Source: an uncultured Chlamydiae bacterium (GTDB lineage: Bacteria > Chlamydiota > Chlamydiia > Chlamydiales > JAJFMB01). Taken from it: 64,000 nt of DNA. Location of the stretch: contig CAVOJR010000001.1 in the NCBI GenBank assembly GCA_963696295.1, positions 3,120,095-3,184,094 of the forward strand, written 5' to 3'. Below the pieces are notes generated by a model. That model was not told the origin of the DNA. It saw only the letters and a list, made by a program, of their open reading frames with translations, and did no database searches. Position numbers and translations under genes: made by a program. Of the stretch, positions 2,923 through 60,187 are shown piece by piece; position 1 is the stretch's first letter, and each line of letters starts with the position of its first letter.

Positions 2923-3043
2923 CACTCGAATTTTTTTCCGTTTGTGTCGACCAGGCGTTCGCCGCGTAGTTCTTCGAGCCTACCTAGGTAATTCAAAGTT
3001 GAATTTGGAAGCGGTTGCAATTGTTAAGAAAATATAAATTAAC

Positions 3044-3072
3044 TTCACATTTACGATTCATTGATTTATAGT
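3044..3072 (+). promoter_or_regulatory. Sigma-70-like promoter for the coiled-coil ORF
   Basis: TTCACA (3044-3049), 17-nt spacer, TATAGT (3067-3072). AGGAG at 3086-3090 and ATG at 3097 follow. Confidence 0.4.
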
Positions 3073-3096
3073 ATTCGAATAATTTAGGAGTGCACT

Positions 3097-4065
3097 ATGA
3101 GTTACAATGGTATAAATGGTGGTGAAGTTGTCAGATACTACAGCAACAACAACAATTCGAATAATAATAATGGCGATCAACAAGTCCAGGGAAATGGGGT
3201 GTCTTATACGCTATTGTCTGTGGAAGAAGAATCAAAAGTAAAAGAAAGACTTCAGGCTATCAGTAAATTGATAGAACTGGAACAAGATGAGGGCCAAAAA
3301 AGGGCATACCGTCTTCACTATAAAGCAGAAGTGGCTAAAGAACTTGAAAGCAATCTTGCAAAAGCCATTTTGAATGAACAAAGCGCAAAGGCTAAATTTG
3401 ATGATTTTTTAGATCGACATGCACAATTGGAGATAGAAAAACATAGACAGGAATTAGCTAATCAACAATTGCAAGAAAGAATTGATGGTGAAGCTAAAAA
3501 GAGAGCTGAAGTCGAAGATGAATTGAATGCCCTCACTCCCTTACTTTTTAAACTAAACAAAACGAACCAACAGGCAACAGCAGAATTGGATCAAACAAAG
3601 TCCTCTTTAGAAAGCGAAGGCCAAAAGAGAAAAGTTGCAGAAGCTGAATTGATTCAAACTCGGTCCTCTTTAGAAAAAAAAGTCAAAAAGATAAAAGTTG
3701 TAGAAGAAGAATTGACTCAAACAAGGTCCTTATTAGAAAATGAAGGCACATCGAGGCAAAACTTTGAAAATGAATTAAGAGCAGCAATATCCTCATTAGA
3801 TTCTCAGAAAATTGCGCGAAAAGTTGCTGAGGCAAAACTTGTCGAAGCAATTGCTCAGATCGAAGAAGATAAGAAAAGAATTGATACCCTCGAAAAGGAA
3901 AAAAAGAAAATCGTTTCTCAGCATGAAGAAACTCAAAGTCAATTGAAACAAACAAAAGCAGCTCTTTGTAAAAGTCAAAAAGCTCTTGAAGATGAAAGGG
4001 CAATGAGAGCTGAGCTTGAGCAAAAAATCCAGAAGTTTATCAATCAATTCCAATTTAAAAAGTGA
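3097..4065 (+). CDS. Coiled-coil protein with N-terminal Asn-rich tract (candidate secreted/effector-type protein)
   Basis: AGGAG RBS 7 nt upstream. NNNNSNNNNG run near the N-terminus. E/K/Q/L-rich heptad-like sequence throughout. Three 21-aa repeats L(D/I/T)QT(K/R)S(S/L)LE... at 3586-3648, 3649-3711 and 3712-3774. AT-rich relative to flanking core genes. Confidence 0.75.
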   Translation: MSYNGINGGEVVRYYSNNNNSNNNNGDQQVQGNGVSYTLLSVEEESKVKERLQAISKLIELEQDEGQKRAYRLHYKAEVAKELESNLAKAILNEQSAKAKFDDFLDRHAQLEIEKHRQELANQQLQERIDGEAKKRAEVEDELNALTPLLFKLNKTNQQATAELDQTKSSLESEGQKRKVAEAELIQTRSSLEKKVKKIKVVEEELTQTRSLLENEGTSRQNFENELRAAISSLDSQKIARKVAEAKLVEAIAQIEEDKKRIDTLEKEKKKIVSQHEETQSQLKQTKAALCKSQKALEDERAMRAELEQKIQKFINQFQFKK

Positions 4066-7208: not shown

Positions 7209-7565
7209 ATGACTGTACAAAATCATATTCATTCACAGACGCCAGGTAACCAAGAGTATACCAAGGCCAAATTCCTGACAAATGCCTGGCAGGAGAATAA
7301 GAAACTCACCCAAGCTCTAGCTGAGCAAGGAGCGCATTATATTGCAAAAGCAAATACCCCTCCTCCTCCGCCGCCCGCTTCAATGAAGCCAAAAAACGTG
7401 CAAGCGATGAAATTGCCCCAAACGCCCCCACATTCGGAATCAAAAAATGTGCAAACAATGAAATTGCCGGAATCAAAAACAGCCTACTTTGAAGCTTTAG
7501 CAACCAAAGTCAAAGAGAGCGCGCGGGAGCTGTTTTCCTTTGATTGGCTTTTCAATCGAGCCTAA
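7209..7565 (+). CDS. Hypothetical Pro-rich 118-aa protein
   Basis: AAAGAGG RBS before the ATG. PPPPPP tract. Short internal duplication KNVQ(A/T)MKLP(Q/E). Confidence 0.55.
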   Translation: MTVQNHIHSQTPGNQEYTKAKFLTNAWQENKKLTQALAEQGAHYIAKANTPPPPPPASMKPKNVQAMKLPQTPPHSESKNVQTMKLPESKTAYFEALATKVKESARELFSFDWLFNRA

Positions 7566-7660
7566 CTCAAGAAAAAAAGTGCAAATTCGCTGGCGGTTAG
7601 TCCAAAAAGCCGCCAATTAAAATTCTTGGGGAAGTAGTTTGGAACCGTAGCGTTGTATAA

Positions 7661-9094
7661 TTAGCTGCTTAGTTGAAAAACACCCGCGTTGACTAAATGG
7701 GCAATCACATTGGCATCGCGGTCCAACTTTTCCCGGGCGGTATCGAAAATAAGCTGTTTGCTGTAGCCTGTTTTTATTTCCCGGGCGACTCTCCAGTTCC
7801 ATATTTTGAAGCCCTCCTCATAGATGGCGTCCGACATGGCCATTTGATCGGTGTCGGCTCCATGGGTATGGGTCAGGCCAAAATCGGGAGCGACGATATT
7901 CGTGTACAAATAGTAGTTGTGCTTGTCGGCTGGATTGAGGAAATCGTTCATCAGCCTCTCGATATTGGGAAAATACTTAACAATCGGATAGGCGTTTTTG
8001 GGGACAAAATGTTTATCCAGGGCCTTTTCAAAAATCTGATCGCGGCATTTTTGCAAGGCGTACTTGAGGGGGTCTTGGGCTGTGATATTCTCAGCGTATA
8101 TCGCATCCACTTCCCAAATCACCGCTCCCGAATAGCCATAAGCCGAAAGCCCAAGCCGCGTCAAAATTTCACTTTTCTTCTCATCGCCGGCTGTTTTTAA
8201 AAAGGTGAGGATATGGGCTAATTTTTTTTGCAGCGTCTCATATTCTTTTGGCTCGGAGTTCTGCAAGGTTCCTTGTTGAATGAGATCGAGCCCCTTCAGT
8301 ATCGCTGCAGGCTCTACTTGGCGCTCAGGGTTTCGCTTATGAAATTCCCGCCATTCCAGGCTCTTGGAAAATGGTTCCGTAAGAGCTATTTTAGACCAGT
8401 CAACCTGATGATAAAATTCGCTTAACCGGCTATCTTGCGAAATGGGGGAAACAATCTCCGAAAGGTGATACGGGGAAATTTCGACCAGGTCCAGGGTCAA
8501 TGGGCGGCTTATGTCTACCGGCTGAGGCTTTTTCACTTGTTTGGTGTTTCTGAGATTTAAGGCTATCTCTATTATGGCGAGCCCCTTTTTGAGGGCGCAG
8601 TCCTGAAATAAAGCCGAGATGCCGGCAATCATGAAGGCGTTTTTATCCAGCGCGCTTCGCACGGTATAGGGAAGAAGGCGGGCCCGGCTCATGGCTCCGA
8701 CCCCTAACATGAAAAGAGTTGCCCCGCCTAAAGCGGCGTTCCCGAGGACGATCAAGGCCGCTGATGAGACCGCCGTTGAGACGATGGCTACTGTCCCCAG
8801 CGAGTCGTGCAAGCGGAGCAGCTTGGGGTTTTTCACCAGGTGCGCCGCAAAGGTGACGGCGCCCGGCAGCGCCAGGAGGGAATATTTGAGGGGCGTATAA
8901 AAGGCCGGCTGTTTCTTTCCGAGCGATTCAAACACACGCTCGACGCTTTCCAGCGCTTGTTGGACGCTTAGCGTTTGGATTAAGGCGGGCACAATACGGC
9001 GCCCCCCTTTCCGCTGAACACCCTCTTCGATCCGCCCGAGATTTAGTTCGTGGCCGATGCTGATCCCTTCAAAAAAGGGTTTTAAAACCTGCAT
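7661..9094 (-). CDS. Hypothetical membrane protein with paired hydrophobic segments (Inc-like topology)
   Basis: 477-aa ORF. Two long hydrophobic stretches (LLALPGAVTFAAHLV ... TVAIVSTAVSSAALIVLGNAALGGATLFMLGVGAM) lie in the N-terminal third, followed by a ~300-aa soluble domain. Confidence 0.7.
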   Translation of the reverse strand: MQVLKPFFEGISIGHELNLGRIEEGVQRKGGRRIVPALIQTLSVQQALESVERVFESLGKKQPAFYTPLKYSLLALPGAVTFAAHLVKNPKLLRLHDSLGTVAIVSTAVSSAALIVLGNAALGGATLFMLGVGAMSRARLLPYTVRSALDKNAFMIAGISALFQDCALKKGLAIIEIALNLRNTKQVKKPQPVDISRPLTLDLVEISPYHLSEIVSPISQDSRLSEFYHQVDWSKIALTEPFSKSLEWREFHKRNPERQVEPAAILKGLDLIQQGTLQNSEPKEYETLQKKLAHILTFLKTAGDEKKSEILTRLGLSAYGYSGAVIWEVDAIYAENITAQDPLKYALQKCRDQIFEKALDKHFVPKNAYPIVKYFPNIERLMNDFLNPADKHNYYLYTNIVAPDFGLTHTHGADTDQMAMSDAIYEEGFKIWNWRVAREIKTGYSKQLIFDTAREKLDRDANVIAHLVNAGVFQLSS

Positions 9095-9795
9095 GCGATA
9101 TCCTTGGCTAATTTCTTAGCTTTATTAACGAGAACGGGATCGGCACTGAATTCGCAGCAATGAATGAGGAGCGCAGCCTTTAATTCTTTACCTTTTTCTG
9201 CCGCTTTAATCCATTTTTGCAATCCCTTGTTGTTATTGAGATTGTGGTAGACCCTCCTCATCTGCGGAGTAAGCGCACAAGGATAGGAGATGCCGTCAGA
9301 AGAGAGAAAACTAAAATAAGAGTGGAAGTTAGCGGGGTTTCCAACCCGGTCTATGGCGGAAAATACGGCCTGTTGAACAAAAGGGGGATGAGAGGCAGGA
9401 TTCAAGGCTACCGATTTTGCCCGTTTGACTAAAGTGGTGATTTTCATCTCATTTGTATTTTCATAGTCCAATGCCCGGATAAGAGAATCGATCCAACGGG
9501 TGGATTCCAGCAGGTTTTTGTCCAACACATCCTCATCGGTGATGTCTTCAAGATCCTTAACCTCATTCACCGGGGAGTGGTTGTCCTCGGAAGAAGTGCT
9601 CAAATCTTCCTTTTTTGTGCTTATGGCGCGCACGTTTCTTTGGGTATATTCTTTGTAATTAAAATTTAAGTCGTTATCAAAAACTTCACTTGCGACCTCG
9701 TCAACTTTGGAATTTCTTTGGCTATATGCATAGGCAATCCCGGCCGCGGCGCCAAGGGCTGTGAAGATCAATAATTGCCGTCTTGATATGAACAT
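9082..9795 (-). CDS. Hypothetical protein with N-terminal TM/signal anchor
   Basis: 237-aa ORF. N-terminus RRQLLIFTALGAAAGIAYAY. Its 3' end overlaps the start of the downstream 477-aa ORF by 13 nt, which suggests an operon. Confidence 0.65.
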   Translation of the reverse strand: MFISRRQLLIFTALGAAAGIAYAYSQRNSKVDEVASEVFDNDLNFNYKEYTQRNVRAISTKKEDLSTSSEDNHSPVNEVKDLEDITDEDVLDKNLLESTRWIDSLIRALDYENTNEMKITTLVKRAKSVALNPASHPPFVQQAVFSAIDRVGNPANFHSYFSFLSSDGISYPCALTPQMRRVYHNLNNNKGLQKWIKAAEKGKELKAALLIHCCEFSADPVLVNKAKKLAKDIACRF

Positions 9796-9965
9796 TTAAT
9801 TTCCTTGAAAAAGAAGTAGTCTAGCACAGCCAATATTTAATTTGTACTCATTAATTATATAAATTAAATTTATAATTAATATTAAAATAGAAGCTCCGGT
9901 TCCCCTTCTGGACTGTAAATATCAGATATGCTAATGTTGTAAAACACCGCTAAGAGGTTTTTTTT

Positions 9966-10172
9966 ATGAGCCTGATTATCACTATTCTCGTCGCGTTTGC
10001 TTTTTTTCTGCTGGCTCTGGCCCTTGTGGCCATCGGCTGGCTTATCACCGGAAAAATGAAGGTCAAAATCGGCGCTTGCGGACGAGTTCCGGATAAAGAT
10101 AATAAATGCGGCGAGGAAACCAAATGCAGCCTTTGCGACGAGGGAAAGAAAGAGAAAGATGACCTACAATAA
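9966..10172 (+). CDS. Small single-TM Cys-rich protein, possibly NqrM-like
   Basis: 68 aa. One TM helix (IITILVAFAFFLLALALVAIGWLI) is followed by GACG...C...C..C. The 3' end overlaps the ubiE start by 14 nt. The architecture resembles the NqrM/DUF539 maturation factor (from memory). Confidence 0.45.
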   Translation: MSLIITILVAFAFFLLALALVAIGWLITGKMKVKIGACGRVPDKDNKCGEETKCSLCDEGKKEKDDLQ

Positions 10173-10884
10173 ACAAGACCCGGAAACTATTCAGACCCTT
10201 TTTGGCAACATCGCGTCTCAATACGACCGCACCAACAGCGTGCTATCATTCAAGCTGCACAAATACTGGAACAATGAGCTGGTCAAAGCCATATCAGAGG
10301 AAGAATCTCCCAGAACTTTGCTCGACCTTTGCTGCGGAACCGGCGAAATCGCCTTGACCTACCTGAAAAAGACCCCGGTGCGCTGCCAGGCTTATCTCTT
10401 AGATTTTTGCGAAGAGATGCTGCAATGCGCCAAAGCTAAAGCGGAAGATCAATTGCTCCATCACCACACCCTGACCTATTTAAGGGCGGATGCGCAAAAT
10501 ATCCCGCTGGCCAAAGAGAGCGTCAAAGCCTGCACGATCGCCTATGGCATCCGCAATGTGAAAGAACCGAAGAAGTGCATTGAAGAGGTATTCCGCGTGC
10601 TGGAGCCGGGCGGGCGCTTTGCTATCCTGGAACTCACGCAACCCAAAAATAATCTTCTCCGTTTTGGCCACAGCTGCTATTTGCGGTTTGTTTTGCCCCA
10701 AATCGGTCGGCTGCTCACCCGAAATAAAGAAGCGTACCAATATTTGTGCCAGAGCATCCAAAACTTTGTCGACCCGCAAGTGCTCGAAGAGCAGTTGAAA
10801 GAGGCCGGTTTTGTGGAAACATACCGCAAACCTTTAAATGGCGGGATCGCCACCATCATTTTTGGACGAAAGCCGCTTCGTTAA
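10159..10884 (+). CDS. ubiE: Demethylmenaquinone/ubiquinone methyltransferase
   Basis: Motifs FGNIASQYDRTNSVLSF, LDLCCGTGE (SAM motif I), IAYGIRNV and VLEPGGRFAILE. Confidence 0.9.
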   Translation: MTYNKQDPETIQTLFGNIASQYDRTNSVLSFKLHKYWNNELVKAISEEESPRTLLDLCCGTGEIALTYLKKTPVRCQAYLLDFCEEMLQCAKAKAEDQLLHHHTLTYLRADAQNIPLAKESVKACTIAYGIRNVKEPKKCIEEVFRVLEPGGRFAILELTQPKNNLLRFGHSCYLRFVLPQIGRLLTRNKEAYQYLCQSIQNFVDPQVLEEQLKEAGFVETYRKPLNGGIATIIFGRKPLR

Positions 10885-11916
10885 TTCTCCCCTCAGCAGC
10901 TTTCCTAAGGGAGAGCGGGGGATGGCAGGCACGAAATGGGTTTGCCTGATCCTCTCAAAGGGAAGAACTCTCTCGTGAAAGCGTTTTAGAAATAGTTCTA
11001 CGGAATCACCGGTGTAGACTAAATGCAGGGCGTGCCCGAGCCGATCGTCCGGCATGGCGACAAGAGCGCAGTCGAGCTCTCCTCTCAATTCCTCTACAAG
11101 CAGGGTCAATTTCTTCAAATCGACGCTCTCCCCTCCAACTTTCACAAAATCGCTGTTTCTTCCTTGGATCTCCAGAATATCACCATGAAAAGAAGCATGG
11201 TCCTCTGTCAGGAACCACCCCATCTTCTTAGGGTCTTCAAAGCTGACATTTTCTTGGGTGAAAAAGGCATAGGCTGTTAACAATGAAGGGCTTTTGATCA
11301 TCAAGAGGCCTCTATCAGTAACTTTTGCCTCAATATGCGGCAGCAATTTCAGCTCCGGGGAATCTTTTGTCGCGGTCGCGACTTGCGAAGCGCACTCGGT
11401 CAGACCGTAGCTCGGCATCAAAGGCCAGCCCAATTTTTTGCCCTTTTCATAGAGATCGCATGAGAGCGCTCCCCCGCCCACAACCACTCCGCGAAGCGAC
11501 GGAGGGGCCTTACTCTCGAGCTTCACCAAGTCGTAGATTTGCGTCGGCACAAGGGCTGTCAAGGAGGCCCGGCCGGCTTCTAAAAGAAATTGGGCCGGAT
11601 CCCATTTACCAGGCAGATCGATGACTTCCGAGCCGCTGAGGTAAGCCCTGGCCAGGATGCCGGCTCCCCCCACATGGAAATGGGGCAAGCATTTCACCCA
11701 CTTATCAGCTTTTGTCGCTTGCAAATGTTCATTCACCGCGTGCGCAGAGGCGAAAAGCGCGCTTTTGGAGAGAGCCACCGCCTTGGACTGTCCGGTTGAA
11801 CCGGAGGTCAAAAACCAGAGGTGATCGGCCAGCTGCCCCTCCAAAAGGGCCTCTATCCGCTCCCGTCCGGGCATGCGGGGATTCAGCAAAACTTGAGTCT
11901 TTTCCCAGTCGATCAC
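10834..11916 (-). CDS. menE: O-succinylbenzoate-CoA ligase (short form)
   Basis: AMP-binding motif TSGSTGQSKAV, plus YGLTECAS and a C-terminal LGKLLRGEL. Last gene of the men cluster. At 360 aa it is N-terminally shorter than typical MenE. Confidence 0.8.
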   Translation of the reverse strand: MIDWEKTQVLLNPRMPGRERIEALLEGQLADHLWFLTSGSTGQSKAVALSKSALFASAHAVNEHLQATKADKWVKCLPHFHVGGAGILARAYLSGSEVIDLPGKWDPAQFLLEAGRASLTALVPTQIYDLVKLESKAPPSLRGVVVGGGALSCDLYEKGKKLGWPLMPSYGLTECASQVATATKDSPELKLLPHIEAKVTDRGLLMIKSPSLLTAYAFFTQENVSFEDPKKMGWFLTEDHASFHGDILEIQGRNSDFVKVGGESVDLKKLTLLVEELRGELDCALVAMPDDRLGHALHLVYTGDSVELFLKRFHERVLPFERIRQTHFVPAIPRSPLGKLLRGELTKRLSSKNDGGDPAI

Positions 11917-12794
11917 AGCTTTTTCCAGGGTAACTTGGCAAGCAAAGCGTCAAACCCGAAACCGGTGCCTTCGGGAGGGGTGAGAAAGGGCCCTTTTTGG
12001 GGCAGCTGCTCACTAAATTCGTTCGTCTGATAAACAAGATGACTGCAAAGACCACCAGTCGCCACCTTCAGTTGGGCTGCGATATAGGCCGCTGAAAGCT
12101 GTCCCAGAGGATGGTCCAAATAGGAAGTGACCACCAGCTTCTGGCTGAGATTCTGAAAGGGGGCGTGGGCTTGAACGGCCGGTTTTAAAATGAGTACTTT
12201 TGCAGCCTTGGTCTTGCCGATCGCCCGCTCCGAACCGGCATCGCAGGCTAAACTTACTGAATATTGCTCCTGCAGGCGCTGCCAGGCCACTTCTGAAAAG
12301 GGAAAGGGGTCTTCGATAAAATCGAAAAAAGGAAGAAAGGGAACCATCTCTTCTAAAAAAGCCTCGAACGCCCTTTCGGTCAAACGGGCGTTAAAATCGA
12401 GCCGCACCTGGCAGGGAAACTTTTCGAGCAGCATTTTCAGCTGCTCTTTTTCTTCAAGCTCTCTTCCCATTTTGATTTTAAACAAAGAGGTGTCGGGAAT
12501 CTCATCGGTGATCTTCAGGAGCAGATGGTGGCTCGGAGGAATGGCCAATCCATCGAAAAGGGAGCGCTTTTTAGCACGCGCCTCTCTGTCCAGTCCGGCG
12601 AAATAGAGGGAGCGCTCAGTCAAGCGGGTGGTTTGACCGTCGGCCAATCGCTTGAGCTGTTCCTGCAGAGGCAAATCCCCCAGCTCTACCCAAGGGTGGC
12701 AGTCGGCGTAGCCCCCCTCTACAGAAAGGAGCGCACCCTCCCTCACCATGCCCCCCGTTTTCGCCTTAAGGGTATAGCGATGAAAGGTTATCAT
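11913..12794 (-). CDS. menC: O-succinylbenzoate synthase (enolase superfamily)
   Basis: FKIKMGR...VRLDFNARLT pattern and its position between menA and menE. Start chosen at ATG 12794, which forms an ATGA overlap with the menA stop. The longer listed ORF (to 12893) would overlap menA by 103 nt. Confidence 0.75.
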   Translation of the reverse strand: MITFHRYTLKAKTGGMVREGALLSVEGGYADCHPWVELGDLPLQEQLKRLADGQTTRLTERSLYFAGLDREARAKKRSLFDGLAIPPSHHLLLKITDEIPDTSLFKIKMGRELEEKEQLKMLLEKFPCQVRLDFNARLTERAFEAFLEEMVPFLPFFDFIEDPFPFSEVAWQRLQEQYSVSLACDAGSERAIGKTKAAKVLILKPAVQAHAPFQNLSQKLVVTSYLDHPLGQLSAAYIAAQLKVATGGLCSHLVYQTNEFSEQLPQKGPFLTPPEGTGFGFDALLAKLPWKKL

Positions 12795-13651
12795 ACCAGC
12801 AATCCAATCGCCATAAGCGCCCCGAACATCATATGGAGCAAAGCCCCCATCCCTAAAATTTGGTTGTAGGCCGGACTCGGGGGCAATTGCCACACTTTCA
12901 GGGCAACGCTAATGGCTACGGGCAAGGCCAGCCAGGGCAAAAAAGCCGCCATAAATTGATGATGGATCCAATAGAGGGTGAGGAAAAACGGGAAAAATGC
13001 GCAAAAGGTGATCGCCCCTTTCCCGAAATTTACGCCGTATCTCACGGCGATCGTGCGCTTATTTGCCTCGCTATCGGTTGAAAAATCGCGGACATTATTT
13101 ACCGCGATGAGGAGCGTGGCGAGCAGCCCGATCTGCGTCCCTGCGATCAGAGCCTCCCAAGAGAGCCCGCCGGTTTGGATATAATAAGTTCCGCCTATGC
13201 CGATCAGCCCAAAAAAAACAAAGACGAACACCTCGCCAAGGCCAAGATAGGCCAAGGGAAAGGGGCCGCCCGTGTACATATAAGCCAGCAGCAGGGAAAT
13301 GCAGAGCAGGCAAGCGATGACCGCCCCCCCTTGAATCACCAGGGGCACAGCAAACAGGGCGCCTAAGGCAAGGCAGGCCATCCCCCCTCTCATCACGGCG
13401 GAGGGGGTGAGCAGGCCGCTTTGCACCACCCGCACCGGGCCGATTCTTTTCTCAGTGTCGGCCCCTTTTTTGAAATCCAGCGCGTCATTGAGCAGATTTG
13501 TGGCTATCTGAACGAAGACAGCCGCAAACAGGCAGCAAAGCGCCAGGAACCATTTTGGATGAGGAGCTAGAGCTGTCCCCACCAGCACAGGAATCACCGA
13601 TGCGGTAAGGGTCTTTGGCCTCGCCGCCATAATCCACGCATTCATTGGCAC
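12791..13651 (-). CDS. menA: 1,4-dihydroxy-2-naphthoate polyprenyltransferase
   Basis: UbiA-family motifs ARPKTLTASVIPVLVG and NLLNDALDFKKGADT...RIGP. Polytopic hydrophobic protein. Confidence 0.9.
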   Translation of the reverse strand: MPMNAWIMAARPKTLTASVIPVLVGTALAPHPKWFLALCCLFAAVFVQIATNLLNDALDFKKGADTEKRIGPVRVVQSGLLTPSAVMRGGMACLALGALFAVPLVIQGGAVIACLLCISLLLAYMYTGGPFPLAYLGLGEVFVFVFFGLIGIGGTYYIQTGGLSWEALIAGTQIGLLATLLIAVNNVRDFSTDSEANKRTIAVRYGVNFGKGAITFCAFFPFFLTLYWIHHQFMAAFLPWLALPVAISVALKVWQLPPSPAYNQILGMGALLHMMFGALMAIGLLV

Positions 13652-13656
13652 CTCCC

Positions 13657-14486
<830 letters not shown>

Positions 14487-14490
<4 letters not shown>

Positions 14491-15152
14491 TGCACATCTC
14501 CTATGAATTGTTTTAGTTGTTCTTGAAGCTCATTTTCCCAAAGTAGGCGGTGGCCCGCTTCCGGAACCCTCCATTCCCTTGATTTTTTGTTCGTAAAGGC
14601 TAGGCCGCATGTGGCCTTTGGGTCCCTTTCCCCTGTGATCCAGAAGAGGGGCATCGGCAAAGCGGCAATCAAAGGAGTCAAATACTCCTGATGGCCAACC
14701 GACCACTTTTCCAGCACCTGGCAAAGAATTGCCCGGTCATAGTCTGCCTCATTTCTCATCACAGATCGATCCCCGGCAAAGACGCCCTGGCCATTCCAAT
14801 CCCGCATCAGTTTCTCCCAAGGGTCGTTCAAAAAGCGCTTGGCCCATTTTTTATCCTGGGCCAGGCGCTCCTCCCTTTCCCGCTTCTCTTTAAGGCCGGG
14901 ATTGGCGGAGATGATCACCGCCGCTTTCCAACGTTTTGGATTTTGAATCAGCGCGTGCAGGGCAAGCCTGCCCCCCAGGGAATACCCCGCCAGGACGCTC
15001 TCCCCGGAAACCCGGGCATTAAATTGCTCTGCCCACTCGGCTAGGCTTTTGATCGGAGGCTGAAAAAGATTGATATTGTTTGCCTTCGGCAGGCTCTGCT
15101 GCCAATCGCCTGGCCGTCCCAAAAAGCCATGTAGAGCGTATATATCGGTCAT
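14487..15152 (-). CDS. menH: SHCHC synthase (alpha/beta hydrolase)
   Basis: LHGFLG oxyanion motif, GYSLGG nucleophile elbow, 4-nt overlap with menB. Confidence 0.75.
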
Positions 15153-15339
15153 TATAGAGAGGCCTTATTTCATCTGATCCATCTTTCATACTTAAGATTC
15201 CTTAAATTTGCAAGGATTCAATACGGCAAGCGGCATCCCAGACTTTAATATTTAAGTGAGGTATTATGATAAAATAAGAACAAAACAAGAAATTAGAATC
15301 GCGGAAATTAGACCATTAGGCCTCTATGTCAAGCTAATA

Positions 15340-15361
15340 AGGCTAATCCTTAGATTAGCCT
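15340..15361 (-). terminator. Hairpin downstream of the 68-aa ORF
   Basis: AGGCTAATC / GATTAGCCT perfect 9-bp stem with a 4-nt loop, 14 nt past the stop at 15375. Confidence 0.4.
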
Positions 15362-15374
15362 CGCAGAATGCCCT

Positions 15375-15581
15375 TTATTCGAATCCGGGGCCTGATGTTG
15401 CCGTCTTCCAGGCAGAATCAAGAACATTTTTAGCAACTGTAGACGCCATGGAATTAACCTGTTCATGAATATATTTATCAGCGGCCTTCTGCATTTGTTT
15501 ATCGAATTCGATGCTGCCGCAACCGACTTGAGCTTCTCCCTTCATGGTCGCAACTAATTTATTATAATCACTGCTTATCAT
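15375..15581 (-). CDS. Hypothetical 68-aa protein
   Basis: Strong RBS (AGGAGGG) upstream of the ATG. No recognisable motif. Confidence 0.6.
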   Translation of the reverse strand: MISSDYNKLVATMKGEAQVGCGSIEFDKQMQKAADKYIHEQVNSMASTVAKNVLDSAWKTATSGPGFE

Positions 15582-15759
15582 ATACCCTCCTGTTATTAGG
15601 TTTTTTATTTGTTATACTAATAATTATAACTCAACATTTTAAATGCGATATATAGATTTTATTATTTTTCTGCAAAATTGACGTCGACAAAAAGGAAATG
15701 AAATCTTTATTAAAAATTAAAATAGTTCCTATATAATTAGCAGTAAATAAAGGGGAAAA

Positions 15760-17328
15760 ATGGCTGCTATTTCAAATTATCATCTTTCCAATAAAGAAAT
15801 CTTCTTATCATTTGCAACGGGTTTTAGTGCTATTCCTTATGCCATGCGCCACTTCCAGGAAGCAAAAAACAGTGGAAATTATGCCTACTATGCCCACAAG
15901 GCCATCGGTTCTATTCAATGTATTCCTGTAATTGGGGGGCTTTGCGCCTTAGCGGAACGCATTGCGGTATTGGCCTGTAAGAAAATATTTGCAAAACCGA
16001 TCCCGCCGGTCGAGAAATATAAAGATGATGAAACCACCCCTATACAAAAAATAGGTAAAGAGGATGATCCTGCTGACGTATCAATGGATCCTCCCCCGGT
16101 AATTGAAATAGACCAGAAAATCCTCGATAATCCGAAAGCGCTAGTTGAGATAGCGGCAACTTTCGGTGTACTTTACTACAAGGATTATGAAAGCATCCGC
16201 CTTCATCTTGCCAAACTTGCAGAACAGAACTATCCTTTTGAACCGGTGGATAAGTGGATTTGCCAAGCGGTGTTAGGGGATCCCCTTTTCAATATCGAGG
16301 AGTTTCAAAAACTGCCGGAGGAGATGCGTTGTAAAATCTTTTTTGTCGCCAATCGCTTTCAACATGAGGATTTAGTCAATCAATTGAAACCTTATACACC
16401 CAAAGGGGAAAACATTGCCCTGGAGGGGTATTCCATCTCTCCATCGGATGCTACTTTACAGGAAACCCGCACAAATATTATTTCGTTTTATAAAACTCTT
16501 AGAGAAGAGGGATCCATTCTTACTGTCAGTGAGTTTTTTGCTTTTGAGGATGAAATCAAAGCAAAACTCGATGGTTTTCTTGAATCCCTATGGAATCATC
16601 CCCCCAGTAATGGGGAGGAGCTAAACAAACAGGTAAAGCTTTTTTACGATACGGTTGACGCTGAAATCGGAAGTAAGAATAACAATCATGTGAATTTCCA
16701 TCTGATGAGGATGAAATATGCCTTAGATCAGGTTACTTATAGCAGCGACTTTAAAAATATAATTAAAAAAGTGGGAAAGTATTTTAGGAACCGCTCCTAT
16801 ATACCAAGCATAAGCACCATTAAAGAGGATAGCGGCGCAGGGTTTTATGTCAAAAGTAAGCCTTTGATTTCGCGAATCAAAGGAATAAAGTGGTGTGATA
16901 AAGTAATCAAGGAAAATAATTTACAGTATATAAAAGTTCCTAAAAAGATATTAATCGTCAATGATTCCCTAGAAAAATTTAATGTAGACACTTCGGGGGA
17001 ATTAGTTGATCCTCACGAAAACCCTCCCTATTGTCTTATCGCAGAGCAGATCTATGAAACGGATAATACGCCATCTGCAGGGGAAGACATCCAGATGAAG
17101 GCTAATGAAGAGCTGAAAACATTTGCCAAAAAATCGTATTTTTCTGATTTTTACGGTAGAAATTTCTTGTGGCACTTTGATCATTCTCTTTACTGTATTG
17201 ATACGGAATTTAATAGCTTTACATTTCCACCAGACCAGAAACTCTCAACGAGCATTTATAGGCAATTTTGTCCACCCAATTGGAGATTTACTTACACCAT
17301 CCCCTTGAGAAATAACGCCTTTGCTTAA
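15760..17328 (+). CDS. Hypothetical 522-aa protein; C-terminus with kinase-like D-x4-N ... ID-x-E pattern
   Basis: GGGGAAAAA before the ATG. AT-rich. C-terminal SDFYGRNFLWHFDHSLYCIDTE resembles a catalytic loop plus metal-binding Asp of atypical kinases. Confidence 0.65.
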   Translation: MAAISNYHLSNKEIFLSFATGFSAIPYAMRHFQEAKNSGNYAYYAHKAIGSIQCIPVIGGLCALAERIAVLACKKIFAKPIPPVEKYKDDETTPIQKIGKEDDPADVSMDPPPVIEIDQKILDNPKALVEIAATFGVLYYKDYESIRLHLAKLAEQNYPFEPVDKWICQAVLGDPLFNIEEFQKLPEEMRCKIFFVANRFQHEDLVNQLKPYTPKGENIALEGYSISPSDATLQETRTNIISFYKTLREEGSILTVSEFFAFEDEIKAKLDGFLESLWNHPPSNGEELNKQVKLFYDTVDAEIGSKNNNHVNFHLMRMKYALDQVTYSSDFKNIIKKVGKYFRNRSYIPSISTIKEDSGAGFYVKSKPLISRIKGIKWCDKVIKENNLQYIKVPKKILIVNDSLEKFNVDTSGELVDPHENPPYCLIAEQIYETDNTPSAGEDIQMKANEELKTFAKKSYFSDFYGRNFLWHFDHSLYCIDTEFNSFTFPPDQKLSTSIYRQFCPPNWRFTYTIPLRNNAFA

Positions 17329-17331
17329 TAA

Positions 17332-17628
17332 TTGATAATATGGTATAATATTTATATGATTAGTATAATTGATGACAATTTTGTCCAACTTCCCCCTTTA
17401 AAAGGGTGCGCCGCAATCCTTTCCTCCTGTGAGGAACGGGTGCATCTCATAGGAATTACCACACTGGCCCGCCTTTCAGAGATTAAGCAGGCTGTGCTTG
17501 AAAGCTGGTCCGAATCGATACGCGAGCAGGCAAAGCGGATTCAAGAGGAGCTCAGCTCTTCTGCTTATTTGAGCCATATGGCCTATCTGAAGATCCTCCT
17601 GGAACCTAAGGTTCACACGAATTTTTAA
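17332..17628 (+). CDS. Hypothetical small protein (start uncertain, possibly ATG 17356)
   Basis: The ORF begins 4 nt after the preceding stop. No motif. Contains the left copy of an 18-bp direct repeat. Confidence 0.35.
   Translation: MIIWYNIYMISIIDDNFVQLPPLKGCAAILSSCEERVHLIGITTLARLSEIKQAVLESWSESIREQAKRIQEELSSSAYLSHMAYLKILLEPKVHTNF
17568..17585. repeat. Left copy of 18-bp direct repeat TTTGAGCCATATGGCCTA
   Basis: An identical 18-mer recurs at 18411-18428. The pair brackets the P-loop kinase pseudogene. Confidence 0.7.
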
Positions 17629-17654
17629 TAAAATTTTTTCATTAAAATCTATAC

Positions 17655-18328
17655 ATGAAAACCCCCCGTTTGAAGAAATTTGCTTTGATCGGACTTCCCG
17701 GAAGCGGCAAGTCCACATACGCTTCCAAGCTGGGCGGAATTCAGCCGGAGTTTACAAACTCATTGCCGGCATCTGACGCAATCTTTTGACGTCCAACCGC
17801 TTAATGTTTTTCGCGCTTAGCCACATGGGTAATACGCTCAAAACATTAATCGGTTGGACGTCAAAATCTTGCATCATCTGCCGACAAGCAGTTTGTAAAC
17901 TCCGGCTAGGCATTCCGGTTCATCATCTGGACAGGCATATGTTTGAGCCGGACGGAAAGAAGAAGGACAAGCTGGAATTCATAAAGATTCAAAAAGATAT
18001 GCTCGACGAAGAAGCCTGGGTTGTAGAGGGGTGTTCTTTTTCGACTTTCGAAATGAGGTTCGCCAAGGCGGATGTTCTGATTTATTTCCATTTTCCCCGC
18101 CTCGTTTGCATCTTCAGACTTTTCAGAAGAATATTTAATTACAAAAGAGATTTCGGCGGCTTAAGAGCTGTTACATGGGAAATTTTGAAATACACTTGGA
18201 ACTTTGATAAAGAAAAAAGAGCCAAAATTGAAGAACTCAGGCAAAAGTATCCCCAAACAGAATTTCTCATCTTCAGAAGGCAGAAAGACGCCGATCTGTT
18301 CATAAAATCCTTGACAAAGTCAGATTAG
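17655..18328 (+). pseudogene. P-loop NTPase/adenylate-kinase-like (topology modulation FlaR-like) gene interrupted by a palindromic element
   Basis: The N-terminal piece MKTPRLKKFALIGLPGSGKSTYASKLGGI (ATG 17655) runs into a TGA inside the insert. The C-terminal piece IPVHHLDRHMFEPDGKKK... runs to 18328. Removing 17743-17915 (element plus one ATTC copy) gives ...SKLGGIPVHHLD... in a single 167-codon frame. Confidence 0.8.
17743..17911. mobile_element. MITE-like palindromic insertion (169 bp) with ATTC target-site duplication
   Basis: Arms 17745-17810 and 17840-17905 are reverse complements, about 56 of 66 nt by hand alignment, with CCGGAGTTTACAAACT termini. ATTC at 17739-17742 recurs at 17912-17915. 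No coding capacity. Confidence 0.75.
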
Positions 18329-18410
18329 CCAAAAAAAGTCTTGGCATAGCGAAAATTGGTCTTATTATCATTACTGACTCAAGGAAGGAGATATGCGGGC
18401 TTGTAGCTAC

Positions 18411-18428
18411 TTTGAGCCATATGGCCTA
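18411..18428. repeat. Right copy of 18-bp direct repeat TTTGAGCCATATGGCCTA
   Basis: Identical to 17568-17585. The core GCCATATGGC is itself palindromic. Confidence 0.7.
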
Positions 18429-18695
18429 GGAGCCGAAGTATTGGAGGTTAATTTGTCAGTTAATGGCTGCGATCATGTGGCGTGAGTCTTTACGGTTATG
18501 GTTTGGCTTTTAAGAGAGCTATCGATATGTGCGGGTTGTGGGACGGCGTGGTTGATGGAAAAGATCTTGGAAAAGAATTCAAAAATGAAGCAGCAGATAT
18601 GGCAAAAGGTCTTATAATCGTAATTTCCAGCAGAGTTTTTAGAGAGATAGCCTCGAGGCTAGAGCAGGCCCGGCTTCACGGGCCGTGCTGAAACG

Positions 18696-19655
18696 TCAGG
18701 ACTGATTAAACTTCGCTGTGCAGTCTCGCACATAGCGATATTTTTTCTCCACATCACTCAAATTACCCCCATCCCGGTAAAACTGCTTATCGATATATTC
18801 CCCGTTATGAACCACTCTCCAGGAATCGTTATCGATGACATCAGCCAATAATAAATTGCCCTTGGTATCAAAACCAAATTCCACTTTGAAATCGACCAGT
18901 ATCGACCCCTGCAATTGCCAGGCTCTTTCTAAGATTAAGAAGGTTTTTTTGGCAATGTCTCCCATTTTTGTAAAGTATTCCTCCCTCCCTTTTAAAGGAT
19001 AATCCTCCAGAACCATAAACGGTTTCACAACAGGACATTTGGGATCGTAAAGTTCAGCCTTGCCCTCTTTGAACAGGACGTAGGGATCATCACTTACTAA
19101 TTTTGCTCCCTTCCATTCCTGATCTTTCGTTTTTAAGAAAAACTCTAAAATTAAATCGGGGAAAACATGCCCCTTTTCTAATTCTGGATTGCGTTTGAGG
19201 TAGGAACCGTGTGCTTGTCTTCGGATAACGACCTCATAGAAAATCATATCGCACTTAGGGGCAGTAAAACGGATGGCATCAAGCTGTTGATAAAATGCCA
19301 CCGGCACACCCTGTTTTTTCAGCAACTGAAATACATGGCACGTGGTGCCGGTCGAGTATTCCGCTTTTGAACAGAGCATATCGTGTTTCTTGCCGTCAAA
19401 AGCAGTAATGTCGTCTTTTGAGGTGATAACGACTGTTGCGGGATCCTGCTCCAGTTGGGTGATGATTTTAGTTTTTCCTTCGGTTATCTTTAATCTTGGA
19501 TTAGAAATAGAGGCCAAAACACTCGTATAAGTGATTGCATTTTGTATTGGATAATAGATTGGCCGTCCATAAAACATCGGACGGATAGTGTAGAAGGCCG
19601 TTGCATTTAATCCTCTATAGACGACATTTGTTCCCAAACCAAAAGTAAAATTCAT
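18696..19655 (-). CDS. purC: SAICAR synthetase-like protein, eukaryotic PAICS-type, with ~55-aa N-terminal extension
   Basis: EGKTKI, SKDDITAFDG, ...GSYLKRNP..., LVDFKVEFGFD and LLADVIDNDSWR match my recollection of the human PAICS N-terminal domain (YEGKTKEV, SKDQITAGN, GSFLKRNP, LVDMKIEFGVD, VLADVIDNDSWR). Lies 64 nt downstream of menD on the same strand. Confidence 0.75.
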   Translation of the reverse strand: MNFTFGLGTNVVYRGLNATAFYTIRPMFYGRPIYYPIQNAITYTSVLASISNPRLKITEGKTKIITQLEQDPATVVITSKDDITAFDGKKHDMLCSKAEYSTGTTCHVFQLLKKQGVPVAFYQQLDAIRFTAPKCDMIFYEVVIRRQAHGSYLKRNPELEKGHVFPDLILEFFLKTKDQEWKGAKLVSDDPYVLFKEGKAELYDPKCPVVKPFMVLEDYPLKGREEYFTKMGDIAKKTFLILERAWQLQGSILVDFKVEFGFDTKGNLLLADVIDNDSWRVVHNGEYIDKQFYRDGGNLSDVEKKYRYVRDCTAKFNQS

Positions 19656-19719
19656 AACTTTCTCCCCATGCAGTTGTTAATTGAAAGGGGAAGACAGTAC
19701 CAGATTTGAAAGGTATCAC

Positions 19720-21198
19720 TCAAGTTAATTCAATCAGGGTCGGGCGCAAGAGGGAAAATTGTTCCGGTATGGCGCTCCACCTTTCATAATGAAGACCCCA
19801 GAATTTAGCCATACTTTCAAAGCTCAAATTGTGTTCATTCAGGAATAGTTTTGAAGGAAACATCTTGTTAAAGATTTGTCCCCCTCCATTATTCACGACG
19901 ACAATGGCTATTTTTTGAGCGGCTAATTGGGGGATAACCCAGGGAGCGGCCAGGTCGTAGAGGGCCGTAAGGTCGCCGATCAGCGCCCAGTTCTCCTGGG
20001 TGGCGCCGCAAAGGCCGAGAAAGGTGGAAATCTGCCCGTCGATGCCGTTCAATCCGCGGCTTGCGAAAACCTCAAAGCGCTTGAGCGACGCGGCGAGATC
20101 CCAATGGCGGATCGGCAGACTGTTGCCAAGATAAACCAGGGAGCCTTCGGGGATCAGCTTAGAGAGATCATGAATCATCGCCCTCTCTGAGCAGTGGTCC
20201 TGCGGGTGCTCAGTTTGTACAGCGAAATCATAGCGCCGCTTTACCTGATATGAGGCTAAAAAGGGAGCGAGATCTGTCTGGAGCAGCTTGCCATGGCTCA
20301 AACCGCTGAAAGGTGAATGGGTGATGGAAAGCACTTCGAGCCGATGATCTTCCAGGTCGCGCCATAAACGGGTGGTGGGCACGCCGCCAAGGCGCAAAAC
20401 AGAGTCAAACTCCTTAACCCGCTTTTCCACATTATGGAGGCGAAGGTGCTGCAGCTTCGGCTCCTCGCGAAGACCCGAGATCGCTTCCAGATAGACCGGG
20501 GCGTTTAAGGCGAGCAGGAACTCCAAAACAGCCGCTCTATCCCGGGGGAGCAGCGTGCTGACCAGCGCCAACGGGCGCTCCACGCGCTGAAAAAATTGAT
20601 CGAGAGGCAAGGAATTGGCCAAAGTCGCCGGCAATGTTTTTTTTGCCGGAGTGAAGCGCTCTTTACAGATCGTCTTTATCAAGGGCTCTTCAAAGCAGAC
20701 GTTGATATGCGCGGGGCCCTTTTGATCCCATTCGCTCAAATCGCAGAGGTCATAATCCGCTAAATCCTGAGAATGTGTCACATAAGTTCCAAAAATCCCG
20801 ACCTGTTCCGCTGTCTGGGGCGCTCCGGTTCCCCGGTATCTCCTGGGACGGTCGGCAGTGATCAACAAAAGCGGAACTCCAGAATAGGCGGCTTCCATAG
20901 CCGCGGGTAAAAGCTCCCCGACCGCTGTTCCCGAGGTGGTTATCACTGCGACGGGGCGATCTGCGGCGCGGCTTTTACCCAGGGCAAAAAAGGCCGCGGA
21001 ACGCTCCTCAGGCCAATAAAAGATGTTCTCCGATTTTTCCAGGGTCATGACAAAGGGGCTGTTGCGGGCTCCCGGGCAGATGCAAAACTCCTCAACCCCG
21101 GCATTATAGGCATTTAAGAGAACCGTCCGGACAAGTTCGGCATTCAGATCGCCAGAATCTTTCGCGTCGCATCGATCTTCAAGTTGAGTTCGCTCCAT
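19720..21198 (-). CDS. menD: SEPHCHC synthase (ThDP-dependent)
   Basis: CICPGARNSPF, TSGTAVGELLPAAMEA, LLLITADRP, GLNGIDGQ. Start placed at ATG 21198 (MERTQ...). The listed ORF start at 21294 would lie deep inside menF. Even so, a 55-nt overlap with menF remains, so the start is uncertain. Confidence 0.85.
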   Translation of the reverse strand: MERTQLEDRCDAKDSGDLNAELVRTVLLNAYNAGVEEFCICPGARNSPFVMTLEKSENIFYWPEERSAAFFALGKSRAADRPVAVITTSGTAVGELLPAAMEAAYSGVPLLLITADRPRRYRGTGAPQTAEQVGIFGTYVTHSQDLADYDLCDLSEWDQKGPAHINVCFEEPLIKTICKERFTPAKKTLPATLANSLPLDQFFQRVERPLALVSTLLPRDRAAVLEFLLALNAPVYLEAISGLREEPKLQHLRLHNVEKRVKEFDSVLRLGGVPTTRLWRDLEDHRLEVLSITHSPFSGLSHGKLLQTDLAPFLASYQVKRRYDFAVQTEHPQDHCSERAMIHDLSKLIPEGSLVYLGNSLPIRHWDLAASLKRFEVFASRGLNGIDGQISTFLGLCGATQENWALIGDLTALYDLAAPWVIPQLAAQKIAIVVVNNGGGQIFNKMFPSKLFLNEHNLSFESMAKFWGLHYERWSAIPEQFSLLRPTLIELT

Positions 21199-22139
21199 TC
21201 TTTCTCCAGTTTGCTTTCTTTTACCACTCCGCAGCCGGCTCCGATCTGCCATCTTTCCCCTTCCCGCTGCACGTTGCGGATGGCGACATAGCATTGGCCG
21301 GCGTTTTCCCGCCAGTACCCTACCGGGGCGCCAAAGCGCTTACGCGGCAGCAAGGTCTGATAACGCTCTAGCCATTCTTTACCCGCCTCTTTTGGATAAG
21401 CCCCGAGCGCCGGCGTCGGATGCAAAGCGTGTACCAGCTGATAAAATCCGTCAATCCCCGCATCCAGACTTCTGACATCGAGATCGATGGGGGTAACCAG
21501 ATGCTTAAGCGTGGAATAATTAATGACTTCAGTGTTACCAATTTTCACCTTTCCAAATGGGGAAAGCGCTTGTTCGATTCCATCGATGACCAGGCGATGC
21601 TCCCTATTTTCCTTGGGATCTTCAGCCAAGGGCTCTTCGCCGGTCCGCTTTGTCCCTGCCAGGGCAACGCTTTTTACTATCCCCTTTTCCAAAGAAAAGA
21701 GCTTTTCGGGAGTCGCGCCTAAAATGGTCTCGTGCTCATCCCAAAAGCCATAGGCGTAAACGGGATGCTTTTGAATATAGCTTAATAAATGGGTTAAACA
21801 CCAGTTTAGTTTTTCTTTGGACCAGGGAGTATTGGCATGGGCAAAGACATAGGGGACAGCTTTTTCGAGCGTGATGCCCTTAAATTGTTCGGAAAAAAAA
21901 CCAAAATAAGGGTTTTCCCAATGAAAATCAGCTCCTTTTAAGGGGGGAGGCAGGCTGAGTTTAGAAATAACTTCCTGATGCTCATGAGTAAACCAGGCTT
22001 TTGGCTCTTTTAAAAAGAAGTCGGGAAAATAGAAGCTTTCCGGGCCGGGAGAAGCAGACCAGCGTCTTTTACCCCAGCCGACAAGCAGCTGAGAAGGGTT
22101 TAAACTGACAATCGCGCCGCACTTTAAAAACTCGTCCAT
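21144..22139 (-). CDS. menF: Isochorismate synthase (short, chorismate-binding core only)
   Basis: GATPEKLF, LAGTKRTG, HPTPALGAYP, RFGAPVGY, GAGCGVV..S....EW.E. Confidence 0.85.
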   Translation of the reverse strand: MDEFLKCGAIVSLNPSQLLVGWGKRRWSASPGPESFYFPDFFLKEPKAWFTHEHQEVISKLSLPPPLKGADFHWENPYFGFFSEQFKGITLEKAVPYVFAHANTPWSKEKLNWCLTHLLSYIQKHPVYAYGFWDEHETILGATPEKLFSLEKGIVKSVALAGTKRTGEEPLAEDPKENREHRLVIDGIEQALSPFGKVKIGNTEVINYSTLKHLVTPIDLDVRSLDAGIDGFYQLVHALHPTPALGAYPKEAGKEWLERYQTLLPRKRFGAPVGYWRENAGQCYVAIRNVQREGERWQIGAGCGVVKESKLEKEWSELNLKIDATRKILAI

Positions 22140-60180: not shown

Positions 60181-60187
60181 GTAAATC

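Follow-up and report, generated by a model that had tools for sequence, protein, structure and literature searches.

An uncultured Chlamydiae bacterium carries, on contig CAVOJR010000001.1 of the assembly GCA_963696295.1, a purC-like gene that encodes a stand-alone, PAICS-type phosphoribosylaminoimidazole-succinocarboxamide (SAICAR) synthetase (PurC, EC 6.3.2.6). The gene occupies positions 18696..19655 (minus strand) of the 64,000 nucleotides analysed here (forward-strand positions 3,120,095 to 3,184,094 of the contig), which are called the window in the following. Judging from the sequence comparisons described below, the gene rather probably arose by horizontal transfer between bacteria and truncation of a purC-purE fusion, and its product would be a canonical-looking SAICAR synthetase that is still competent and that now resides in a chlamydial accessory island. 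It would thus correspond to the 5' half of a purC-purE fusion of bacterial origin, which has the architecture of the animal enzyme PAICS and belongs to a distinct bacterial clade. The chlamydial lineage would have received the gene from an intracellular bacterium of low GC content, most likely one of the Dependentiae, and the gene would have arrived in, or been trimmed within, a 4.6-kb insertion that splits an ancestral menF-menD-menH-menB-menA operon. The PurE half, an aminoimidazole ribonucleotide (AIR) carboxylase, would have been removed cleanly at the domain boundary, and a new 5' end would have been gained, consisting of a strong ribosome-binding site of its own and a disordered, acid-free leader of 55 amino acids. 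The expected chemistry is that of the family: ATP would phosphorylate the carboxylate of carboxyaminoimidazole ribonucleotide (CAIR), assisted by bound Mg ions, and attack by L-aspartate would yield SAICAR. How useful the enzyme is depends on which pur genes the remainder of the 3.3-Mb genome holds.

Sequence, predicted structure and active site

The open reading frame (ORF) is complete, with an ATG start and 319 codons followed by a stop, as judged from the ORF listing, the Pfam match and a structural model. A first-pass annotation, which had been made from the sequence alone, recognised the PAICS-type domain by five motifs, and all of them are present in the protein, namely EGKTK (residues 59-63), SKDDITAFDG (79-88), GSYLKRNP (150-157), VDFKVEFG (254-261) and ADVIDNDSWR (271-280). 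The Pfam family SAICAR_synt (PF01259) matches residues 57-306 with 148.3 bits against a cutoff of 20, which is far beyond chance. The assignment to the PAICS type was equally sound, as human and insect PAICS rank first among the proteins of solved structure (E ~1e-35), followed by archaeal and bacterial PurC (1e-23 to 1e-11). An AlphaFold2 model, for which an alignment of 120 sequences served as input, has a mean predicted local distance difference test (pLDDT) score of 87.7; residues 55-319 score above 90, and residues 1-54, which lack secondary structure, score 38-52. When the model was compared with solved structures using Foldseek (E<=1e-3), all 38 matches were PurC or PAICS structures (E of 1e-23 to 1e-18, template modelling (TM) scores up to 0.91 on target), with human PAICS (6yb8) at the top. 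The catalytic domain (residues 57-316), as delimited by alignments and by the Foldseek matches 6yb8, 4fe2 and 2z02, is encoded at 18708..19487 (minus strand).

Among the 95 positions that are conserved in at least 95% of 119 homologs, 91 are kept in the chlamydial protein. The residues forming the SAICAR synthetase site of human PAICS were taken from the literature (PMC9376930). The ATP loop G16-K19 of the human enzyme corresponds to G60-K63 in the EGKTK motif (19467..19481, minus strand). The aspartate-binding residues T40, K191, K228 and R232 correspond to T84, K257, K290 and R294, and the residues of the Mg and SAICAR site, E97, V99, K131, E193, D207 and D212-R215, are found as E141, V143, K175, E259, D272 and D277-R280. 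The motif ADVIDNDSWR (18816..18845, minus strand) thereby supplies both the Mg ligand D272 and the CAIR/SAICAR ligands D277, S278, W279 and R280. Human A41 aligns with A85, and the sole differences from human PAICS among the listed ligand positions, G42 to F86 and N43 to D87, are common to relatives that lie inside pur clusters. In the alignment with E. coli PurC, R94, S100, R199 and D129 match R145, S151, R280 and D190, respectively. We take the three former E. coli residues to be ligands of the CAIR phosphate and D129 to be a Mg ligand, with roles and numbering according to the work on 2GQS. Since the canonical active site is complete, ordinary SAICAR-forming chemistry is most likely, and the product is predicted to be catalytically active.

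The protein scores 88.7 bits with the NCBIfam purC equivalog model TIGR00081 and thus remains below its cutoff of 189.9. However, members of the fusion family that lie inside pur clusters score 82-98 bits. The low score is therefore a trait of the family or a matter of the scope of the model rather than a mark of divergence, and it was ruled out as a sign of neofunctionalisation.

Relationship to bacterial PurC-PurE fusions

The protein is a singleton in a database of 5.8 billion clusters (~15 billion proteins). Its 119 best homologs share 51-59% identity with it over the whole alignment (54-61% in local BLASTP alignments), and nearly all of them are bacterial fusions of ~430 amino acids in which SAICAR_synt is followed by the AIRC/PurE domain (PF01259+PF00731), which is the architecture of PAICS. 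A scan of the GTDB species representatives yielded at least 80 relatives, and the named carriers among the matches listed are Candidatus Dependentiae (60%), Xanthobacteraceae/Pseudolabrys, Verrucomicrobiota (Chthoniobacter, Spartobacteria) and Saccharibacteria.

A neighbour-joining tree was calculated from 99 sequences with 100 bootstraps, and it included human PAICS as the one eukaryotic sequence. Of the human PAICS and E. coli PurC sequences used for comparison, only the human one was corroborated, by a PDB alignment over residues 4-146 and 167-235. In this tree, human PAICS, the single eukaryote, is the outgroup to the whole bacterial fusion clade, which includes the purC-like protein and excludes the human sequence in 99 of 100 bootstraps; the separation of the fusion-type clade containing the protein from canonical PurC was recovered in 99-100% of the bootstraps. 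Within the clade, the protein groups with the metagenomic fusions P0003, P0004, P0005, P0007, P0008 and P0011 (69% bootstrap), and this group is joined by named Dependentiae sequences (53%). Over the SAICAR synthetase domain, the protein is 60-62% identical to the nearest bacterial fusions, compared with 38% for human PAICS and 28% for E. coli PurC. Moreover, a region of ~50 residues (residues ~176-227) is common to the bacterial fusion clade and the purC-like protein, and its counterparts in human PAICS and E. coli PurC are much shorter. From the eukaryote-like sequence type, the first-pass annotation had suggested horizontal acquisition. The transfer itself is supported by the low GC content of the gene, overall and at third codon positions (GC3), by its singleton status and by the inferred ancestral loss of purC in chlamydiae, but the implied eukaryotic source gave way, because the protein nests among bacterial PurC-PurE fusions. 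Since a large bacterial clade of such fusions carries them, "PAICS-like" motifs are an unreliable mark of eukaryotic origin.

The purC-like protein stops three residues past the last conserved residue of the SAICAR synthetase domain, and its relatives continue with the linker PxQQIIxWRGS and PurE. No remnant of PurE was detected: PF00731 gave no match, and when nine PurE domains were compared with the window by tblastn, the sole match was the tail of the SAICAR synthetase domain. At the level of sequence, these comparisons establish an origin within the bacterial fusion clade and a truncation at the domain boundary. Apart from 54-62% identity over the SAICAR synthetase domain, the bacterial fusions (e.g. 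MCL4361767.1, which is P0006) share with the protein the long region at residues ~176-227, the TIGR00081 score below the cutoff and identical ligand residues. However, they differ from it in that the chlamydial protein lacks the PurE domain, has a leader of 55 amino acids that none of them has and is encoded outside a pur cluster in a chlamydial genome. Animal PAICS (human 2H31/6YB8, insect 4JA0) is the best match among the solved structures and shares EGKTK, GSxLKRNP and ADVIDNDSWR as well as the ATP, CAIR and aspartate ligands. The chlamydial enzyme, unlike animal PAICS, has no PurE and hence no octameric core or channel, and the long region and the position in the tree separate the two as well. 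Stand-alone PurC enzymes (E. coli 2GQS, S. pneumoniae 4FE2, M. jannaschii 2Z02) resemble the protein in being single-domain enzymes, in fold (TM of 0.85-0.91 on target) and in their catalytic residues, but the identity is only ~28%, and the chlamydial gene is derived from a fusion gene and not from the canonical purC lineage.

Elsewhere in the fusion family, PurE has likewise been lost or has decayed, examples being P0055 with a degenerate PurE-like tail (locus L084, 10001-11209), P0028 (L093, 2320-3177) and P0105 (L092, 389-1243). These three genes all lie outside pur clusters, and that for P0105 is located 2.2 kb from a gene for a large RHS/YD-repeat protein. Together with P0035, they resemble the purC-like protein in the loss or decay of PurE. 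However, they share only 52-55% identity with it, and their N-termini are short or resemble signal peptides, unlike its acid-free aromatic leader. In the neighbour-joining tree, P0028, P0105, P0035 and P0055 each group with different PurE-bearing relatives, which suggests separate losses; thus, the PurE half appears to have been lost more than once in the fusion family.

Candidate donor lineage

The closest relatives are found in purine biosynthesis clusters. For instance, the fusion gene for P0005 lies in a guaB-guaA ... purCE-purB-purA ... arrangement with purM and prs nearby (L090), the P0008 locus has purCE-purB beside purM, purT, purSL, purQ, two purP-like genes and guaA (L091), and P0006, a named Dependentiae sequence, is accompanied by purSL, purQ, purD and purM (L082). 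The genes of the closest clade and the named Dependentiae genes have a GC content of 0.34-0.41 and a GC3 of 0.21-0.33. The corresponding values for the purC-like gene are 0.415 and 0.444, and those for the men genes of the window are 0.49-0.56 and 0.53-0.69, with 0.53-0.56 and 0.58-0.69 for the ones that flank it. The named sister sequences, the low GC content of the closest-clade and Dependentiae genes and the signal-peptide-like N-termini of the neighbouring enzymes all point to the Dependentiae as the most probable donor group. In that case, the gene would document a transfer between two bacterial lineages that are unrelated and that both infect protists.

About 30 of the 120 closest PurC-PurE fusions (P0006, P0007, P0009, P0010, P0015, P0016 and P0018 among them) start with N-termini that resemble Sec signal peptides and end where the enzyme domain begins. 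The same kind of N-terminus occurs on the neighbouring cytosolic enzymes PurD, PurM, Prs, GuaA, GuaB, PurA and PurT in clusters of the Dependentiae type (L082, 13367-15797; L090, 4375-14153; L091, 14216-15457). In the cultured Dependentiae member Chromulinavorax, 44% of the coding sequences carry signal peptides (PMC6561590), and the N-termini of the relatives were for this reason set aside as evidence for export of the PurC-PurE family. The Dependentiae-like pur cluster with purCE in L091 also holds two tandem DUF1246/DUF1297 genes (1117-3260), which encode archaeal-type PurP (5-formaminoimidazole-4-carboxamide ribonucleotide (FAICAR) synthetase), and the pathway is an unusual mosaic.

Start codon and transcription

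The ATG at 19655 is preceded by the Shine-Dalgarno sequence GGGGAG (19662..19667, minus strand), read from the sequence, with a 6-nt spacer. The internal candidate starts M27 and L47 have no Shine-Dalgarno sequence, and the long N-terminus is therefore the best-supported one. The distance to the upstream gene menD on the same strand is 64 nt, as the first-pass annotation had it (the last base of the menD stop is 19720), and a scan of this spacer (19656..19719, minus strand) found neither a terminator-like nor a promoter-like site. Co-transcription with menD is thus plausible, and the gene is probably transcribed by read-through from menF-menD. Downstream, 12 nt past the stop codon, there is a GC-rich hairpin, GGCCCG-TGAAGC-CGGGCC (18667..18684, minus strand), which lacks a U-tract (folding of 18630-18700 gave -23.7 kcal/mol, z = -2.35) and which is a weak candidate for a terminator or a stabiliser. 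The junction of unk337, menF, menD and the purC-like gene was reproduced in an independent Logan assembly of the run ERR11563597.

Purine pathway genes and a possible relic

Chlamydiae are textbook nucleotide parasites. It has been reported that some chlamydial lineages encode de novo purine synthesis (10.1101/577767). A search for a co-transferred purB, made with the PurB protein that adjoins the nearest relative, retrieved adenylosuccinate lyases from Chlamydiales, Waddliaceae, Parachlamydiales and Chlamydiae among the best 120 matches; none of these 120 came from the genome studied here. One of the lyases, P0319 (L094, 10001-11479; also L095 and L096), is encoded in a Parachlamydiales genome by a solitary purB, which has no other pur gene within 10 kb and lies beside thrS, parA and a UPF0137 gene. 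Isolated genes of the purine pathway therefore do occur in environmental chlamydiae. The earlier statement that the window contains no second purine biosynthesis gene was confirmed by Pfam searches of ~45 ORFs and by tblastn with 18 purine-pathway proteins from related loci.

Several points weigh against a transferred, truncated and still competent enzyme. No source of its substrate is in view, as neither purE nor purK nor any other pur gene lies in the 64-kb window, and a published reconstruction infers the loss of purC, purD and purH ahead of the last common ancestor of the chlamydiae (PMC9816063). The parent fusion enzymes reportedly receive CAIR by channelling from PurE (PMC9376930), a domain that is gone here. 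Moreover, the protein deviates from its homologs at four near-invariant positions (A101S, N107H, E147Q and Q210V), compared with a median of one and a maximum of nine in the homologs, and purifying selection (dN/dS) is not measurable for a singleton. As regards the origin, the assignment to the Dependentiae is indirect, since the closest clade is unnamed and the bootstraps are 53-69%; the trees are neighbour-joining trees only, with human PAICS as the sole eukaryote.

Taken together, some of these points would also fit a functionless relic, that is, an orphan purCE fragment without a supply of CAIR, which is open only because transfer or truncation was recent and which is decaying into a pseudogene. 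We regard this account as unlikely, but it is the most serious of the alternatives. Apart from the missing PurE half, the four deviations, the ancestral loss of purC, purD and purH and the lack of pur genes within the window, it can draw on the adjoining NTPase gene, which is already frameshifted, and on the fact that the purC-like gene is a singleton among ~15 billion proteins. However, the 319 codons are intact, every ligand residue has been retained along with 91 of the 95 conserved positions, and the protein is cut off precisely where the domain ends. Natural stand-alone versions of the domain also exist (P0028, P0105). Furthermore, the gene is equipped with a strong new Shine-Dalgarno sequence and start codon, and its GC3 of 0.44 exceeds that of the closest-clade and Dependentiae genes (0.21-0.33), an upward shift that suggests some residence time.

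If the preferred reading of a competent, transferred enzyme holds, the intact SAICAR synthetase, as a recent acquisition of a chlamydial genome of very large size (3.3 Mb), bears on the piecemeal re-acquisition of purine biosynthesis. It may alternatively bear on how transferred multi-domain genes are trimmed and gain new translation starts or, less likely, on a metabolic effector. The gene would be more interesting if the genome lacked every other pur gene while the protein was expressed or secreted.

The N-terminal extension and possible export

The extension of ~55 amino acids (residues 1-56; 19488..19655, minus strand), for which no counterpart had been evident at first sight, is real, as indicated by pLDDT, composition and homolog searches, and it is absent from all 119 homologs. 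Ahead of the xGKTK motif there are 58 residues in the purC-like protein, the longest such stretch among 120 sequences, compared with a median of 20 in the relatives. Residues 1-54 are predicted to be disordered (pLDDT 38-52). Residues 1-58 contain no aspartate or glutamate at all (P ~6e-5 given the composition of the remaining protein), whereas five arginine or lysine residues bring the net charge to +5; ten residues are aromatic, and 15 are serine, threonine or asparagine. Neither the window nor the 89 loci retrieved for comparison yielded a homolog of the leader, and an exhaustive search of 1.84 billion representatives gave a single match, a eukaryotic protein with ten trefoil repeats, which is spurious (BLASTP E = 9.4). 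A 22-nt repeat had hinted at a copy of the 5' end of menH, but Smith-Waterman comparisons against shuffled sequences were not significant for either DNA or protein, and a 16-nt match to L087 is only a Shine-Dalgarno-like string. From its composition, the leader could be a secretion or targeting signal; alternatively, it could be non-coding sequence that was recruited after the transfer and that supplied the new start codon.

A secretion signal would be in keeping with an enzyme that acts in the host, where it would be delivered, for instance, by the chlamydial type III system, which reads disordered N-termini, and where it could change the flux of purines or the amount of SAICAR. The host cell offers CAIR, aspartate and ATP, the enzyme stands alone with no bacterial source of substrate visible within the window, and the leader is unique, predicted to be disordered, free of acidic residues, positively charged and rich in serine, threonine and asparagine. 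The accessory island also holds an ORF of 522 amino acids whose bilobed hydrophobic N-terminus is, by eye only, of the type seen in inclusion-membrane (Inc) proteins. However, the leader is unusually aromatic (10 of 58 residues), which is atypical of known signals, no homologous effector is known, and the composition could merely reflect former non-coding DNA that was recruited as a 5' end. We therefore consider a host-directed enzyme improbable. The complete scenario, according to which a chlamydia obtained the enzyme from co-resident intracellular Dependentiae, trimmed it to one domain, added a leader and exports the product as a metabolic effector that turns host CAIR into SAICAR and so influences purine synthesis in the host or SAICAR signalling, is quite improbable.

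The men operon and the 4.6-kb insertion

The upstream neighbour menD (19720..21198, minus strand) encodes 2-succinyl-5-enolpyruvyl-6-hydroxy-3-cyclohexene-1-carboxylate (SEPHCHC) synthase (TIGR00173, 274.8 bits against a cutoff of 244.2). The nearest named homologs of MenD belong to the Parachlamydia group and the Chlamydiales (~50% identity), unnamed relatives reach 65-69%, and the gene is by these matches of chlamydial descent. In related chlamydiae, menH directly follows menD; here, it lies 4.6 kb away at 14487..15152 (minus strand), as indicated by Pfam and by the gene order of the relatives. The two genes are separated by a lineage-specific insertion of 4567 bp (15153..19719), which was delimited by the GC profile, GC3 and the gene order of the relatives. 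Its GC content is 0.39-0.44 and its GC3 is 0.39-0.50, both low in comparison with the men genes (0.49-0.56 and 0.53-0.69). The insertion contains the 522-aa ORF, a 98-aa ORF, a P-loop NTPase pseudogene and the purC-like gene. In the relatives L088 (67% identity in MenD) and L089 (48%), menD and menH overlap by 4 nt and are followed by menB, menA, (menC) and menE, with ubiE on the opposite strand, and in L087 (68%) menF, menD and menH are contiguous. The men loci of all three relatives lack purC. The adjacency to menD therefore reflects a lineage-specific insertion and not a conserved association.

These observations bear on an idea that goes back to a speculation in the first-pass annotation, namely that the enzyme may have been repurposed for another substrate; it would then ligate aspartate to an aromatic carboxylate of the menaquinone pathway in cooperation with MenF and MenD. 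This idea, which draws on the common strand, the gap of 64 nt and the lack of a terminator after menD, is very improbable. The relatives run directly from menD into an overlapping menH, and the purC-like gene, which occurs in none of them, sits in the insertion beside a pseudogene. Moreover, the residues expected to bind the ribose-5-phosphate and imidazole of CAIR (R145, S151, R280 and D277-W279) are all conserved, and enzymes encoded in genuine pur clusters share 60% identity with the protein. The altered, aromatic substrate that the idea calls for is likewise not apparent, as the ligand residues for the CAIR phosphate, Mg, ATP and aspartate are all retained, so that there is no hint of a new substrate. 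If the purC-like gene is indeed co-transcribed with menF-menD, this is, by the gene order of the relatives, incidental, and the adjacency is an accident of insertion. Direct acquisition of a PAICS/ADE-type gene from a eukaryotic host is the least credible account of all, since the human and insect PAICS structures that are the closest sequence matches in the PDB are outweighed by the 60-62% identity to bacterial, Dependentiae-type fusions (38% to human PAICS), by the long region at residues ~176-227 and by the 99 of 100 bootstraps that part the protein and its bacterial clade from human PAICS, the only eukaryote sampled.

Within the insertion, the gene convergent with the purC-like gene (17655..18328, plus strand) resembles "DNA topology modulation protein" genes, as judged from the model PRK08118 and a three-frame translation. 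The NCBIfam model PRK08118 matches only from profile position 23; the P-loop segment (17655-17789) is in another frame than the rest (17786-18328), and an inverted repeat with 73-nt arms (17743-17815 and 17835-17907, 85% complementary) lies at the frame break. The gene is therefore regarded as a frameshifted P-loop NTPase pseudogene. It is flanked by a 23-nt direct repeat (17563-17585 and 18406-18428, 91%), and the arrangement as a whole may have been left behind by a small mobile or duplicative event. Apart from the inverted repeat inside the pseudogene, a search for mobile-element repeats flanking the insertion found only short pairs at chance level. The 522-aa ORF (15760-17328, plus strand) has no Pfam or NCBIfam match, and by eye its two adjoining hydrophobic stretches (residues ~15-75) recall chlamydial inclusion-membrane proteins.

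The chlamydial men operon (10159-22139 in the window) is seemingly a recurrent insertion site. In L087, a different insertion of ~8 kb (7325-15540) lies between menH and menB and carries genes for WD40/ARM and MORN proteins and an arginine deiminase. The extent of menD differs between annotations: a mechanical call gives 524 amino acids from 21294 with a 151-nt overlap with menF (21144-21294), and the public assembly gives 492 amino acids from 21198 with a 55-nt overlap. In the relatives, the two genes are similarly overlapping or closely coupled.

Other features of the window

Outside the men region, two tandem paralogs of the Peptidase_S41 family of ~600 amino acids each are encoded at 58417-61999 (plus strand), and in family and approximate size they match the chlamydial protease CPAF. 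A protein of 316 amino acids with matches to the eukaryote-like PPR repeat is encoded at 28724-29674 (minus strand) by a gene with a low GC content of 0.38. Close to this gene, at 30215-32092 (minus strand), a serine/threonine kinase is fused to an FGE-sulfatase domain.

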